Positions 7,394-28,489 are shown, numbered from the stretch's first letter. The stretch is 64,000 bases of DNA from Escherichia coli (GCF_030013205.1 NZ_CP122648.1); one strand, 5' to 3'. Translations and numbers: made by a program. Notes: a model not told the origin generated them from the sequence alone.

Positions 7394-7407
7394 TTGTTCG
7401 GTATCAA
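7394..7407. promoter_or_regulatory. FNR-like box TTGTT-N4-ATCAA upstream of dmsA
   Basis: Sequence ttgttcggtatcaa, one mismatch to the TTGAT-N4-ATCAA consensus; dmsABC is known to be FNR-activated. Confidence 0.4.
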
Positions 7408-7419
7408 AGGGAGACAAAA

Positions 7420-7439
7420 AAAGCGCCCGCAGGCGCTTT
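7420..7439. repeat. 20-bp direct repeat aaagcgcccgcaggcgcttt, putative attL core of the P2-like prophage
   Basis: Identical 20-mer occurs again at 28470..28489; together they bracket all phage genes. Confidence 0.55.
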
Positions 7440-7522
7440 AACGTTTCTTGCTCCCCCTGATGATTTACTTATTTTTCAACGAATAAGCCAAAACAGGGGG
7501 AACAAATTAACACAAATTATAA

Positions 7523-8515
7523 CTAATCGATGGACAGTTTATGGACACTTTCAGCCAGCGGATTAAAGTTGATCGCGTCCTGTAAGAAGTCCGGCGAAAA
7601 ATGAGCGTACGTCATTGTTTGCTGAATCGTTGCGTGCCCCAGGATTCGTTGCAACGTAACAATATTTCCGCCATTCATCATAAAGTGTGTGGCAAATGTA
7701 TGACGCATGACATGCGTAGCCTGCCCCTTCGGCAAATCCGGTTTCACCTCCTGAAGAATCTCCCGGAACTTCAGATAATCAACCTGATACAATAACCCCG
7801 TTCGACGGGTTTTAATCAGAGGCACGACCGAATCCGCCACAGGAACCGAACGGGATTTTCCGTTTTTGGTGTTAAAGAACGTCACCCGGTTGCCAACGAT
7901 ATGCTCTCCACGTAGTTCCGATGCTTCACTCCATCGGGCACCAGTAGAAAGACACAGAATGGCAACACGACGCGCATCACCCTCCAGTCGCTCAAGAAGC
8001 CGTTCAATCTCATCATCAGAAAGAAAGGCCATCTCTGTGTTCTGAACTTTCAGTTTTCGTATACCGCGTACAGGGTTCGCGTTGTGAAAGACCTCAGCTT
8101 CAATCAGCACCGTGAACATGGTAGACAGTACGCATAAGTCACGATTAATACTGGACGGCATTAATCCGGCCTGTAATTTCTCTGACCGATATTCAAGCAT
8201 AAATTTTCGCGTCATCTGACTGGCGCGAGGATCTCCCATTTCACGAACAACCTTCCCTAGCCTAACCCTGTAGCTATCCCCGTAAGCCTGATTACGCCCA
8301 TCAAGCATCCACCACGCATCAAGCAGCTCTGATAATCGCCGCTGATCAGCTGGCTTAGCCTGCCATGGCTTGTCATGAAAGTTCTGTAACACATACTTCT
8401 CAAACTCCTGAGCCTTTGATTTCAGGGCAAAGATTTTTCGAATCCGCTTTCCTTCCGCCCCCTGCGGTCTGACATCGACCTGATAACGTCCGTCTTTGAG
8501 TTGCTTAATCGACAT
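7523..8515 (-). CDS. int: P2-type tyrosine integrase
   Basis: Strong similarity to P2 Int as I recall it (SIKQLKDGRY..., LCLSTGARW, HxxRHTFATH, YAHF); ATG at 8515 with GGAGG RBS; the track start at 8530 is TTG. Confidence 0.9.
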   Translation of the reverse strand: MSIKQLKDGRYQVDVRPQGAEGKRIRKIFALKSKAQEFEKYVLQNFHDKPWQAKPADQRRLSELLDAWWMLDGRNQAYGDSYRVRLGKVVREMGDPRASQMTRKFMLEYRSEKLQAGLMPSSINRDLCVLSTMFTVLIEAEVFHNANPVRGIRKLKVQNTEMAFLSDDEIERLLERLEGDARRVAILCLSTGARWSEASELRGEHIVGNRVTFFNTKNGKSRSVPVADSVVPLIKTRRTGLLYQVDYLKFREILQEVKPDLPKGQATHVMRHTFATHFMMNGGNIVTLQRILGHATIQQTMTYAHFSPDFLQDAINFNPLAESVHKLSID

Positions 8516-8584
8516 GATTAGCCCCTCCAACGGATAAATTAACTAAACACTCCTTGCGATATGTAATTCGCTCAATGTGTAGAG

Positions 8585-8926
8585 TCAGCCAACATTGCGG
8601 CCTGATCGGGGTGATTTTTGGGTAATACCGATTGAAACCTGATCGCCCTCCGACTGAATAGATCCATCAAGAGAGAGAGCCGGAGCAATCTGCCCGGCGA
8701 CAGGTAGCGTCTTATCTTTTATTAGCCACAGCATGTATTTTTCAAAGCGATCGACTTGCAGAACCGCCTCAACGATTTTTGCTCTAGCGTTCTTTTGCCC
8801 CGATTCGTAATTCCTTATGGTTGCCAAAGACAACCCAGTAATATCCGCAAACTGCTTTTGTGTTAACCCTTCCGCCTTACGTATCTGACGTAACTTTTTT
8901 GCATAGTCTATTGACAAGATAACCAT
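8585..8926 (-). CDS. phage immunity repressor (CI/C-type, XRE HTH)
   Basis: HTH LTQKQFADITGLSLATIRNYESG; ATG at 8926 preferred over the TTG at 8980; leftward next to int as in P2/186. Confidence 0.7.
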   Translation of the reverse strand: MVILSIDYAKKLRQIRKAEGLTQKQFADITGLSLATIRNYESGQKNARAKIVEAVLQVDRFEKYMLWLIKDKTLPVAGQIAPALSLDGSIQSEGDQVSIGITQKSPRSGRNVG

Positions 8927-8947
8927 TTGAGTATTAACCTCTCGCAC

Positions 8948-8971
8948 AAAGATAACCGTTTGATTATCTTT
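8948..8971. promoter_or_regulatory. inverted repeat aaagataa-N8-ttatcttt in the repressor/early switch region
   Basis: Perfect 8-bp arms between the repressor start and the first rightward gene; candidate operator. Confidence 0.35.
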
Positions 8972-9030
8972 ACAAACCAAAACAAACCATCACAAGGCGC
9001 GACAAGCGCACCAACGCAAGAGGATAACAA

Positions 9031-9552
9031 ATGCGGGACTTCATTGCCGATAAAGAGTTATCTGACCACCAACCACTTCAGGAAAGTGACGCACTCAGCG
9101 GATCCATTGATGCCGCCAACGACGACGAACACGAAGAAAACAAGAAAAAGCGTTCCTACAAAAAAGGAGCGACTTTACGGCTGGATGGTCCGATCGCCGG
9201 GCTTTGCTCTCTGGAAAAAGGCGCGGCATATATTGGGCTAACAAAATCTGCACTGCGCGTAGCCATTCATCGCGGTCAAATGCCGGGACACAAGACGCGC
9301 ACAAACCCGGAAGATGAAAACTCAGACGGAGTATGGTGGTTTAACGCCAAAGAGTGGGACGCACTGGCTGACGAGCTACCGGAACTTGAGCCACCAGAAT
9401 GGCACAACTGGAAAAGTTACTGGACGTATGACCGCCAGAAAAGAAAGTTCTTTCCAGCTAATAAAGAAGACTGCCAGACCATTAACGGTAAGCGAGTTTA
9501 TACAGGCAGAAGCTCAAAACTGAACCAACTCAGAAACAACAGAGGCAACTAA
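9031..9552 (+). CDS. first rightward early gene, possible Cox/Apl-like HTH regulator (unusually long)
   Basis: ATG with GAGGA RBS; HTH-like stretch IGLTKSALRVAIHRGQMPG; occupies the position of cox/apl. Confidence 0.35.
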   Translation: MRDFIADKELSDHQPLQESDALSGSIDAANDDEHEENKKKRSYKKGATLRLDGPIAGLCSLEKGAAYIGLTKSALRVAIHRGQMPGHKTRTNPEDENSDGVWWFNAKEWDALADELPELEPPEWHNWKSYWTYDRQKRKFFPANKEDCQTINGKRVYTGRSSKLNQLRNNRGN

Positions 9553-9556
9553 TCGT

Positions 9557-9979
9557 ATGAAAACAAACACGTCAGATTTCACAATAACTATTTCAAAAAA
9601 TGACCAAGCATTAATTGATAACCTGAAATACCTTGCGGAAAAACATAATAACGGACGAATTGCAATTAATTTACGACACATCACAGGAGTAACAATTGTA
9701 ACCAGTTACTGGCATCTATATCTAATCGCTAAATCAGTACTGGAAAACAAAGATTCTGTTGTCAATGGAAGAGATGTAGATACTCTTCCTGCACAAATCA
9801 AACCGATAGCCTATCAATTGCGTAATCGTTTTAAAAATGAAGGTGGGATTATATTTGACTTTCCCGCAGCTGTAGCCGTGAGCTTCTCTCGGGAGGATAT
9901 ACTTCACTCATTTCGTTTTGCTCTATCAGGTGACGAGACATTATGGCAGCTAGAAGATGCCGGGAGCAGCCCGGCATAA
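9557..9979 (+). CDS. hypothetical protein, AT-rich gene
   Basis: 140-aa ORF, visibly AT-rich relative to neighbours. Confidence 0.45.
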   Translation: MKTNTSDFTITISKNDQALIDNLKYLAEKHNNGRIAINLRHITGVTIVTSYWHLYLIAKSVLENKDSVVNGRDVDTLPAQIKPIAYQLRNRFKNEGGIIFDFPAAVAVSFSREDILHSFRFALSGDETLWQLEDAGSSPA

Positions 9980-27469: not shown

Positions 27470-27483
27470 CGCTCTGTTACAAG

Positions 27484-27512
27484 CAACCCCAGTGTTAAAC
27501 TGGGGTTATTCT
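27484..27512 (+). terminator. hairpin plus T-run after the orphan gene
   Basis: aaccccagtgttaaactggggtt followed by attctt. Confidence 0.45.
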
Positions 27513-27618
27513 TGCTAAGAGACCTTTATACGGCATAAGTAAACAAAGAGAACTATCAGTTGGAGTCTGGGCAAGTTCAGCCTAAACTAGCGACAGTACC
27601 ACGTTAAGGGAGGTCGCT

Positions 27619-27879
27619 ATGTTCCGTTGTCCGCTTTGTGGCGCATCTGCCCGTATCCGCACCAGTCGTCCGGAAAATGATTCAAACACCGTGCGGCAAA
27701 AGTATTACCAGTGCAACAACCTGGAATGCGGCGTATGCTTCTCAACACTGGAAGCTTTCCATAAATTCACATCGAAACACGCCTCCGGCATCCACTCTTC
27801 AGAAGGTATCCCGTGGCATGAGCTGCCAGCTTCACACAGGGGAAACAATCAGATGAGCTTGCCTTTACCTCAGAATTAA
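27619..27879 (+). CDS. ogr: Ogr/Delta-family zinc-finger late activator
   Basis: MFRCPLCGA...YYQCNNLECG resembles P2 Ogr; AAGGGAGG RBS. Confidence 0.8.
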   Translation: MFRCPLCGASARIRTSRPENDSNTVRQKYYQCNNLECGVCFSTLEAFHKFTSKHASGIHSSEGIPWHELPASHRGNNQMSLPLPQN

Positions 27880-27939
27880 CAGGCAGAATTGCCGGAGTAA
27901 CAAAAAAGCGATAGATTACGCGCGGGTGCCTTTCGGCTG

Positions 27940-28152
27940 ATGGTCGGAGGGAATACCCGAAGGCCGGATGTGGAAAGGCCCCGGAAAACATTTTTGTTTA
28001 ACCGAGGCCCTGACCATACAACCTTCGCAAGTCGTAGGTTAGCGCCTCTCCAACAAAGGAGCAAGCGCTATGTCGCAAAAATCGCTTATGGCCATCACGT
28101 TCTGCGTGACGGTAATCCTCATCATCTGGATGCTGCACGGTTCGCTGTGTGA
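27940..28152 (+). CDS. mok-like overlapping reading frame
   Basis: 70-aa frame starting upstream of and overlapping the Hok-like ORF in another frame, as mok does for hok. Confidence 0.35.
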   Translation: MVGGNTRRPDVERPRKTFLFNRGPDHTTFASRRLAPLQQRSKRYVAKIAYGHHVLRDGNPHHLDAARFAV

Positions 28153-28210
28153 AATACGGATGAGCTTCTGGGGAGCGGAGTTTGCGGCGTTCTTACAGTG
28201 TAAGCAGTAA
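28070..28210 (+). CDS. Hok/Gef-family type I toxin (46 aa)
   Basis: MSQKSLMAITFCVTVILIIWMLHGSLCEIRMSFWGAEFAAFLQCKQ: TM segment, SLCEI motif and AAFL motif as in Hok/Gef; AAAGGA RBS; below the track length cutoff. Confidence 0.75.
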   Translation: MSQKSLMAITFCVTVILIIWMLHGSLCEIRMSFWGAEFAAFLQCKQ

Positions 28211-28302
28211 GGAAACCGCGACGGGGGAGCAATCCCCCGTCAATCGGTTGCCAGGGTAAAGGTCGAAAAGGCACCCTATTTCCAGTTGACGTGAACAACA
28301 AG

Positions 28303-28335
28303 CCCGCAGCGTAAAAACTGCGGGTTTTCTTTTTG
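28303..28335 (+). terminator. rho-independent terminator
   Basis: cccgcagcgtaaaaactgcggg followed by ttttcttttt. Confidence 0.5.
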
Positions 28336-28367
28336 GTTCCCTCACTCATGAGGAAACCAAAAACAAA

Positions 28368-28396
28368 GCCCACAGCATAGAAGCTGTGGGCTTTTT
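28368..28396 (+). terminator. rho-independent terminator
   Basis: gcccacagcatagaagctgtgggc followed by tttttg. Confidence 0.5.
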
Positions 28397-28469
28397 GCAT
28401 TCAAAGATGGACGTTATATGGACACTTAAAAATAAAATCCATTTATTTTCAAATGATTAAACCTCTACT

Positions 28470-28489
28470 TAAAGCGCCCGCAGGCGCTT
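28470..28489. repeat. 20-bp direct repeat aaagcgcccgcaggcgcttt, putative attR core (serS terminator hairpin)
   Basis: Exact copy of 7420..7439; GC hairpin gcgcc-cgcag-gcgc with flanking T/A runs just downstream of serS. Confidence 0.55.

Follow-up and report, generated by a model that had tools for sequence, protein, structure and literature searches.

Phage DNA between serS and dmsA

The 64,000-nucleotide stretch of Escherichia coli DNA analyzed here (GCF_030013205.1, NZ_CP122648.1; hereafter the window) is 100% identical to strain ETEC4079. Between dmsA and serS (28513-29805, minus strand), two exact plus-strand copies of the 20-mer AAAGCGCCCGCAGGCGCTTT, at 7420-7439 and 28471-28490, enclose 21,031 bp of phage DNA (7440-28470). 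The expected number of copies by chance was zero (100 dinucleotide-preserving shuffles), and as the bases next to the two copies differ, the repeat identity is exactly 20 bp. A preliminary sequence-only reading had described this bracketing repeat around some 21 kb of phage DNA; its left copy was placed correctly, and its right copy (given as 28470-28489) was displaced by 1 bp.

The 20-mer is a palindrome-like hairpin, with an 8-bp stem and a 4-nt loop, that lies 22 nt past the serS stop codon. In the prophage-free strain K-12 MG1655 it is present once, with serS on one side and the dmsA FNR box on the other, in a site that equals the left flank, core and right flank of the window base for base, with nothing but the core separating the two host flanks. 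Because this single copy with continuous flanks corresponds to two copies in the window, AAAGCGCCCGCAGGCGCTTT is, on sequence grounds, the attB core. The proposal that the phage had used the serS terminator hairpin as attB, with the phage segment absent from a prophage-free serS-dmsA region, was thus borne out. The dmsA-proximal copy (attL core, 7420-7439) retains the host T7 tract on the minus strand and now lies downstream of int, and next to the serS-proximal copy (attR core, 28471-28490) TTTAAGTAGAGG replaces the host T7 tract on the minus strand, which is the serS sense.

Gene content and phage relatives

Inside the repeats, the RefSeq annotation lists int, a C-like repressor, cox, tail genes, ogr and hok, with capsid, scaffold and replication genes as fragments only. 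RefSeq and PHROG matches agree with the initial description of a P2-type int at one end and ogr plus a hok-like locus at the other. Following the int-C-cox module, early-operon accessory genes occupy 9557-14673 on the plus strand (DUF4761, DUF4754, MarR-like, ead-like and SPFH lipoprotein genes, among others), and from 10313 onward they are 77-100% identical to those of phage P88. Plus-strand isrK-like and C4 antisense RNA elements (13751-13948) lie upstream of a 76-aa ORF at 14005-14235. Genes for gpI, gpH (tail fibre, 885 aa) and gpG (fibre assembly) follow at 15247-19059 on the plus strand. The position of P2 Z/fun is taken by a low-GC, minus-strand hexapeptide-repeat acetyltransferase moron (19023-19568). 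The tail module, with U, T, E+E', E, FII and FI, is on the minus strand (19757-25342), opposite to I-H-G. An inversion of this module, whose FI-U strand is opposite to that of P2, was considered and set aside, as no inverted repeats bound it; P88 shares the arrangement, so this orientation is normal for the genus.

At the right end, gpD (25500-26609, plus strand) is intact, with 369 aa if started at Met45 of the ORF, matching P88; the RefSeq product is shorter. An orphan low-GC moron of 221 aa follows (26804-27469, plus strand), whose hydrophobic N-terminal residues ~6-24 read as a TM helix. It had no match in Pfam, PHROG, NCBIfam or PADLOC, has only seven homologue clusters, and its AlphaFold model has a pLDDT of 46. 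An ogr/Delta-type zinc-finger late activator (27619-27879, plus strand) precedes the plus-strand hok-type locus (27924-28210). The latter combines a leader, just upstream of hok, with a sok match at 27924-28080 that stays below threshold (Rfam RF01794, 41.4 bits; gathering score 59) and a Hok/Gef toxin CDS at 28070-28210, which is assigned by PHROG 251 (E = 3e-23) and RefSeq and matches NCBIfam HokA below the cut-off. The cargo kept by the remnant therefore comprises hok, the acetyltransferase, the SPFH lipoprotein and the putative orphan membrane protein. The element presumably also confers immunity, because repressor C is retained.

Comparison of the 7.4-28.5 kb region with P2-like phages, as had been suggested, matched its interior to the P2 family, with P88 (Peduoviridae, Xuanwuvirus) as the closest phage. 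Protein identities by tblastn were 75-100% to P88 and 33-86% to P2, PHROG and NCBIfam matches agreed with this assignment, and the P2-family hallmarks FI, FII, E/E', T, U, D, I, H, Ogr, C and Int were all found. The gene order int-C-cox-early-A...I-H-G, tail module, D-ogr is that of P88 and of the prophage of strain ETEC1701, the deleted block aside. As in P88, FI-U runs opposite to I-H-G and D-ogr-hok forms the right end; identities to P88 are 75-100% for U, T, E, FII, FI, D, ogr and hok, and about 90% for the shared region of the isrK/C4 RNA module. In contrast, the int-C-cox module is different: Int is only 50% identical and megablast gave no match over the first 2.9 kb. Moreover, at the place of the acetyltransferase P88 carries a DNA invertase and an invertible fibre segment, it has no counterpart of the 221-aa orphan that separates D from ogr, and it is complete, whereas the window copy is short of 14.9 kb.

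Two deletions in the window copy

The sister strain ETEC1701 carries a full-length version of the prophage, of about 36 kb, with which the window copy shares attL, attR, the integrase protein and the early region. Relative to it, the window copy, read from the single ETEC4079 assembly, has two deletions of 8,279 and 6,608 bp (14.9 kb together). The first scar (14680-14967, plus strand; junction 14758-14760, 3-bp microhomology GAA) joins the first 27 codons of gpA in frame to the last ~68 of gpO. The second (14991-15254, plus strand; junction about 15109-15113, 2-bp microhomology TG) fuses gpN codons 1-~40 in frame to the last ~47 codons of gpJ. A 356-bp island is kept between the deletions. 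The genes lost encode gpA, ParM/ParR, portal, both terminase subunits, scaffold, capsid and head completion, as well as holin, endolysin, LysB/C, tail completion R/S and baseplate V/W/J. Of gpA, gpO, gpN and gpJ there are only fragments, and Q, P, M, L, X, R, S, V and W are missing. The absence of capsid, terminase, lysis, baseplate V/W/J and replication genes, noted initially from the sequence alone, is hence confirmed against this relative. As judged from its gene content, which lacks the replication, packaging, head, lysis and baseplate functions of a functional prophage, the 21-kb remnant cannot replicate, package DNA, lyse the cell or build a tail.

By P2 synteny, the cos region would also be lost, as it would lie within deletion 1. 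A search for the P2 cos 19-mer (up to 4 mismatches) found no match in the window, the intact ETEC1701 prophage or P88, and is uninformative because even the intact relatives gave none. Two other kinds of element were considered and rejected: a P4-like satellite, since there is no replication gene, the cos region falls by synteny inside deletion 1 and the genes present are all part of a full P88-like phage; and an R-type tailocin or domesticated contractile tail, since the deletions took away V, W, J, R, S, X, holin and endolysin.

Outside the deletions, identity to the ETEC1701 prophage is 99.7-99.98%, with 2 SNPs over the first 9.3 kb. In the right-hand block, 39 of the 41 SNPs fall in a 2.5-kb patch (25262-27768), which probably arose by recombination with another P2-family prophage. 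Intact and doubly deleted copies in sister pig ETEC isolates provide a dated example of prophage decay.

Integration module

The tyrosine integrase gene int (7523-8515, minus strand) encodes a 330-aa protein that is the same as Int of the intact ETEC1701 prophage and has a full-length identity of 52% to P2 Int. It is followed by a C-type HTH immunity repressor (8585-8926, minus strand; 35% identical to P2 C) and a Cox-family regulator that is an excisionase candidate (9031-9552, plus strand; 173 aa). By comparison with the P2 attP annotation, putative arm-type Int sites were recognized on both sides, on the plus strand. The P' arm has two ATGGACA repeats, 11 bp apart, in the int 3' end (7530-7551); its distance to the core is 91 bp, against 87 bp in P2. 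The P arm has ATGGACG and ATGGACA repeats, also 11 bp apart (28407-28428), followed by an A/T-rich IHF-like stretch and, 43 bp further, the core. The P2 system likewise has two direct arm-type repeats 11 bp apart per arm, a P' arm overlapping the int 3' end, an A/T-rich stretch between P arm and core, and similar arm-to-core distances. It differs in the core (27 bp at locI, against the 20-bp terminator hairpin) and in the arm repeat (TGTGGACA instead of ATGGACA), and its Cox has no similarity to the window protein detectable by tblastn.

Repeats equal to the single empty-site copy, int beside att and arm repeats on both sides are what site-specific integration by a tyrosine integrase leaves. 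Since int, cox, C, both att sites and the arm-type sites are intact, the remnant may still excise. A free phage form carrying this integrase can only be inferred, because searches of the phage collection, IMG/VR (exact 31-mer) and complete E. coli genomes yielded no contiguous attP (ogr/hok-core-int); where phage records carry this int, they are predicted prophages with dmsABC included. These results fix the att core, arm sites and host target for a common P88-like lineage that had been annotated only gene by gene.

The serS-AAAGCGCCCGCAGGCGCTTT-dmsA site is empty in 5076 of 5426 complete E. coli genomes, and 343 (~6%) have the dmsA-core-int (attL) junction, among them UTI89 and UMNK88 in addition to ETEC1701. 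The E. albertii type strain also carries this junction, with a diverged host flank and a near-identical phage flank. The serS/dmsA terminator is thus used repeatedly for integration in both E. coli and E. albertii, and the literature searched yielded no prophage at serS/dmsA and no P2-like phage at serS. A 391-bp Chryseobacterium contig with the attL junction has an E. coli-like dmsA flank and is therefore likely contamination, so Chryseobacterium was set aside as a host.

A decayed prophage in a bidirectional terminator

The att sites, together with the unoccupied site, the two deletions and the genes present, lead us to infer the following order of events. A temperate P88/Xuanwuvirus-type phage with its own int-C-cox would have integrated by tyrosine-integrase site-specific recombination. 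The crossover would have taken place within the 20-bp core, the stem-loop of the intrinsic, bidirectional terminator that separates serS from the dmsA promoter, duplicating the hairpin into attL (7420-7439) and attR (28471-28490). In the ETEC4079 lineage, two illegitimate deletions (8.3 and 6.6 kb; 2-3 bp of microhomology) would afterwards have removed essential modules. We put the probability of this reading, a decayed P2-family (P88/Xuanwuvirus-type) prophage in the serS/dmsA terminator crippled by two recent deletions, at about 0.9. It is ordinary for its kind, and the observation is correct but not surprising.

A different emphasis would be that the insertion materially rewires host control, either of dmsABC, the sequence beyond -80 having been moved 21 kb, or of the serS and STnc130 3' ends. 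For dmsABC, phage DNA does begin at about -81 of dmsA P1, and an altered upstream control had been suspected from the proximity of the left junction to the FNR box TTGATACCGAACAA (7394-7407, minus strand), from which 12 bases separate it. However, this box is unchanged with respect to K-12, as are the 20 bp upstream of it and the promoter, where thanks to the duplicated core the sequence equals K-12 out to about -80. The dmsA promoter is of class II, with its FNR site centred at -41.5 (Myers et al. 2013, PMC3688515). Furthermore, transcription from C-int toward dmsA would meet the full host hairpin and T7 tract before the promoter, which should insulate it. Because the promoter is unchanged to -80, an effect on dmsABC is unsupported.

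What changes, as read from the junctions, is the U-tracts of the bidirectional terminator: the core ends exactly at the hairpin edges, so integration would reassign the two host U-tracts. The predicted K-12 serS terminator combines a hairpin of about -15 kcal/mol with T7. The serS-proximal hairpin of the lysogen has TTTAAGTAGAGG behind it instead of T7, and it is no longer classed as terminator-like by the scan. On the other side, the sRNA STnc130 (Rfam match, 7314-7448, plus strand), antisense to the dmsA promoter, has the att hairpin as its terminator, and its 3' tail is now phage DNA, changing in the model from UUUUUAGAUUCA to UUUAACGUUUCU. Outward phage transcripts (C-int, ogr/hok) would gain complete host terminators, and serS and STnc130 would be left with a hairpin minus its U-tract. 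Against a material effect, a phage-borne bidirectional terminator-like hairpin (28365-28394), predicted to be strong, lies about 80-125 nt past the serS hairpin and is the first recognizable terminator for serS transcripts in the lysogen. Besides, any cost of the junction must be small, because 343 genomes carry the same one. It is unlikely that U-tract reassignment measurably alters serS 3' ends, STnc130 levels or antisense transcription at the dmsA promoter in ~6% of E. coli, and we regard material rewiring as improbable in general. The U-tract swap is the sole mildly interesting angle of a locus that raises no new biological question.

Still less probable is that the segment is not a decaying prophage and is a domesticated element, kept by selection for immunity, hok, cargo or the tail-fibre and tail-tube genes. 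Both fusion ORFs are in frame and terminate precisely at the stop codons of gpO and gpJ, the latter of which overlaps the start of gpI so that coupling into gpI is preserved, and all retained genes are intact, most with protein accessions identical to those of the full-length ETEC1701 prophage. Two in-frame junctions are, however, expected by chance about 1 time in 9, and a tailocin is impossible given the loss of V, W, J, R, S, X and the lysis genes. The double-deletion scar is present in only 1 of the 5426 genomes, ETEC4079 itself, and outside one patch a handful of SNPs separates this copy from the intact one, leaving no time for selection to show.

Finally, it is very unlikely that the strain really has an intact 36-kb prophage and that the deletions are assembly artefacts: other P2-family sequences in ETEC4079 could confuse an assembler (7 places match the region and 3 match the scar), but the record is a finished circular chromosome, and the single clean breakpoints, with 2-3 bp of microhomology and a retained 356-bp island, form a pattern typical of illegitimate recombination and not of repeat collapse.

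A P88-type prophage with a P2-style integration module

The insert reads, from RefSeq annotation and our own comparisons, int, a C-type repressor, cox, some 15 early accessory genes, fragments of gpA, gpO and gpN, gpI-H-G, an acetyltransferase, U-T-E'-E-FII-FI, gpD, an orphan gene, ogr and hok. Its best phage matches are Escherichia phage P88 and relatives (Xuanwuvirus, Peduoviridae), with early and tail proteins 75–100% identical to those of P88 and 33–86% identical to those of P2, which upholds the P2-like identity proposed from sequence alone. The U-T-E'-E-FII-FI genes lie on the strand opposite to gpI-H-G. 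An inversion of the tail module relative to P2 was ruled out, as P88 has the identical layout, so the opposite-strand module is normal for the genus. P88 has a different int-C-cox module from the window, where Int shares about 50% identity with the P88 integrase and with that of P2; the window's module is common to prophage-derived records such as vB_EcoM-569R5, where it likewise abuts dmsABC. The element is a P88-type P2-family prophage with a P2-style integration module. The whole window matches E. coli ETEC4079, a Belgian pig isolate, at 100% identity, and public records already contain this very sequence along with hundreds of relatives and the closest phages.

Attachment core and integration site

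The 20-mer AAAGCGCCCGCAGGCGCTTT occurs in exactly two plus-strand copies in the window, at 7420–7439 and 28471–28490, and no chance matches are expected (100 dinucleotide-preserving shuffles). The sequence-only reading had correctly described an exact direct repeat, placing the right copy one base too low. Identity between the copies covers exactly 20 bp, the neighbouring bases being unlike on either side, and the 20-mer folds as a hairpin whose 8-bp stem closes a 4-nt loop. To the left of the prophage lies dmsA (4779–7223, minus strand), with an FNR-like box (TTGATACCGAACAA, 7394–7407) upstream of it, and 22 nt separate the right copy from the end of serS (28513–29805, minus strand).

In K-12 MG1655 the 20-mer is single-copy, and the serS-dmsA spacer equals the left flank of the window, one core and the right flank, base for base, with no phage DNA between them. 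A 201-bp probe spanning this empty site matched contiguously in 5076 of the 5426 complete E. coli genomes searched. The occupied left junction (dmsA promoter, core and int end) was contiguous in 343 genomes of the same collection; in the remainder the junction match stopped at query base 110, that is window position 7439, the final base of the core. The same junction is present in the E. albertii type strain, where the host side has diverged and the phage side is near-identical. The single copy in K-12, the occupancy counts and the E. albertii junction together establish the 20-mer as the att core of an integration site that has been used repeatedly, and bear out the earlier proposal that the serS terminator served as attB. 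Many temperate phages insert in terminator hairpins; our literature searches found no description of the serS/dmsA site or of a P2-like prophage at serS. The 20-mer is also part of the Rfam consensus for STnc130, which derives from enterobacterial sequences; this indicates that the target is conserved beyond E. coli. An E. coli-type dmsA-core-phage junction was also found in a 391-bp contig of a Chryseobacterium assembly (CACSKA010000082.1), where contamination is the most likely explanation.

Each phage arm carries two ATGGAC(A/G) direct repeats, 11 bp apart. The int-side pair (starts 7530 and 7541) falls within the int 3' end, at a distance of 91 bp from the core; the hok-side pair (starts 28407 and 28418) is followed by an A/T-rich stretch, with the core 43 bp further on. 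The P2 attP follows the same plan: its repeats are of the TGTGGACA type, its P' arm overlaps int at the 3' end, 87 bp away from the core, and an IHF site separates the P arm from the core. The extended pattern ATGGAC(A/G)NTT occurs three times in the 64-kb window, always at arm sites, the fourth repeat (28407) deviating from it. No free attP form was found in the phage collection, IMG/VR or complete E. coli genomes.

Two recent deletions

The sister pig isolate ETEC1701 carries the same prophage at the same site, complete at about 36 kb. Aligned with it, the window copy falls into three collinear blocks and shows two deletions. The first (8,279 bp) runs from gpA codon 27 to the last ~68 codons of gpO, with its junction at 14758–14760 and GAA microhomology; the second (6,608 bp) runs from about gpN codon 40 to the last ~47 codons of gpJ, with its junction at about 15109–15113 and TG microhomology. 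Lost are gpA, ParM/ParR, Q, P, most of O and N, M, L, X, holin, endolysin, LysB/C, R, S, V, W and most of J, together with the Q-proximal region that in P2 holds cos. These losses give substance to the earlier description of the element as defective. On gene content it fails as a functional prophage, and readings of it as a tailocin or a satellite fail likewise. The retained genes are intact, including gpD when started at Met45, as in P88, and the fusion ORFs at both scars (14680–14967 and 14991–15254) are in-frame; we saw no evidence of domestication of the remnant.

Among the 5426 genomes, a probe spanning both scars was contiguous in ETEC4079 only, and the prophage differs from that of ETEC1701 by about four SNPs outside one 2.5-kb patch. 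We conclude from this that the deletions are recent, private events of a kind typical of illegitimate recombination. The patch (25262–27768; FI start, gpD, orphan, ogr) holds 39 of the 41 SNPs of the right-hand block, which suggests recombination from another P2-family prophage. ETEC4079 has several further P2-like regions elsewhere. Overall, the element is what the sequence-only reading described, and an ordinary finding.

Proposed effects on dmsABC and the junction terminators

According to Myers et al. 2013 (PMC3688515), FNR is a direct activator of dmsABC and acts from one site, at −41.5; work cited in that paper, as its reference list presents it, treats dmsA as a class II promoter. The box has its centre at 7400.5, which puts the core at about −61 to −80 and the start of phage DNA at about −81 of dmsA; from there to dmsA the sequence is that of K-12 but for one leader SNP. 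It had been suggested that the insertion may alter upstream control of dmsABC. With K-12 sequence retained to about −80, we see no reason to expect altered FNR control, and the same junction in 343 genomes makes a large cost unlikely.

The K-12 hairpin serves as a bidirectional terminator, with a T7 tract after it in the serS sense and T5 in the opposite sense, in which it ends the Rfam STnc130 model. Because repeat identity does not extend past the edges of the hairpin, integration moves the two U-tracts apart; the sequence changes are directly observed, and from them we infer the transcriptional effect. The dmsA-proximal copy keeps the T7 tract and now lies downstream of the leftward C-int genes, a position from which it should keep prophage transcription away from the dmsA promoter. 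After the serS-proximal copy comes TTTAAGTAGAGG, and terminator scoring no longer calls this copy terminator-like; the next such site in the serS sense is a phage hairpin with a 12-bp stem (28394–28365). The STnc130 sRNA itself gives a full-length Rfam match (136 bits, 7314–7448, plus strand), antisense to the dmsA promoter and FNR box. Its terminator is the att hairpin, and the prophage swaps out its 3' U-tract, the 3' tail becoming phage sequence in the lysogen.

Other elements in and near the prophage

A P1 immI-like module (13751–14235, plus strand) lies inside the P2-family early region and is also present in P88 at ~90% identity. It comprises Rfam matches to isrK (13751–13825, plus strand) and a C4 antisense RNA (13861–13948, plus strand), and a 76-aa ORF (14005–14235) named "derepression protein" in the P88 record. 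Targets complementary to the C4 segments TCTTTGGTTG and GTGGAAA fall into two sets, one upstream (13776, 13791) and one downstream (13952, 13986), whose second element overlaps the Shine-Dalgarno of the ORF.

The orphan gene between gpD and ogr (26804–27469, plus strand; 221 aa; low GC, 35%) is absent from P88. Its product had no match in Pfam, PHROG, NCBIfam or PADLOC, has only seven homologue clusters (E. coli, Kluyvera) and gave an unusable AlphaFold model (pLDDT 46). An N-terminal hydrophobic stretch reads as a transmembrane helix; the gene is possibly a lysogenic-conversion or exclusion gene. The low-GC hexapeptide-repeat acetyltransferase (19023–19568, minus strand; annotated serine acetyltransferase; PHROG 2154, unknown function) occupies the position of Z/fun in P2 and of an invertible fibre segment with its invertase in P88. 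After cox, 9557–10177 holds two small low-GC genes (140 aa, plus strand; 63 aa, minus strand) with no PHROG or PADLOC match, shared by vB_EcoM-569R5 as part of the int-C-cox module; P88 lacks both. The ParM-/ParR-like plasmid segregation genes deleted from the window (12080–13355 of the ETEC1701 sequence) are also in P88; they sit at the P2 tin/old position and are unusual cargo for an integrating P2-family phage.

Outside the prophage, the stretch at about 43340–43610 (14341–14608 in L007 numbering) holds the serW tRNA-Ser, a target for islands and prophages in O157 strains, followed by an RtT-like sRNA annotation; the tRNA is unoccupied here. The remaining window is ordinary K-12-like backbone.
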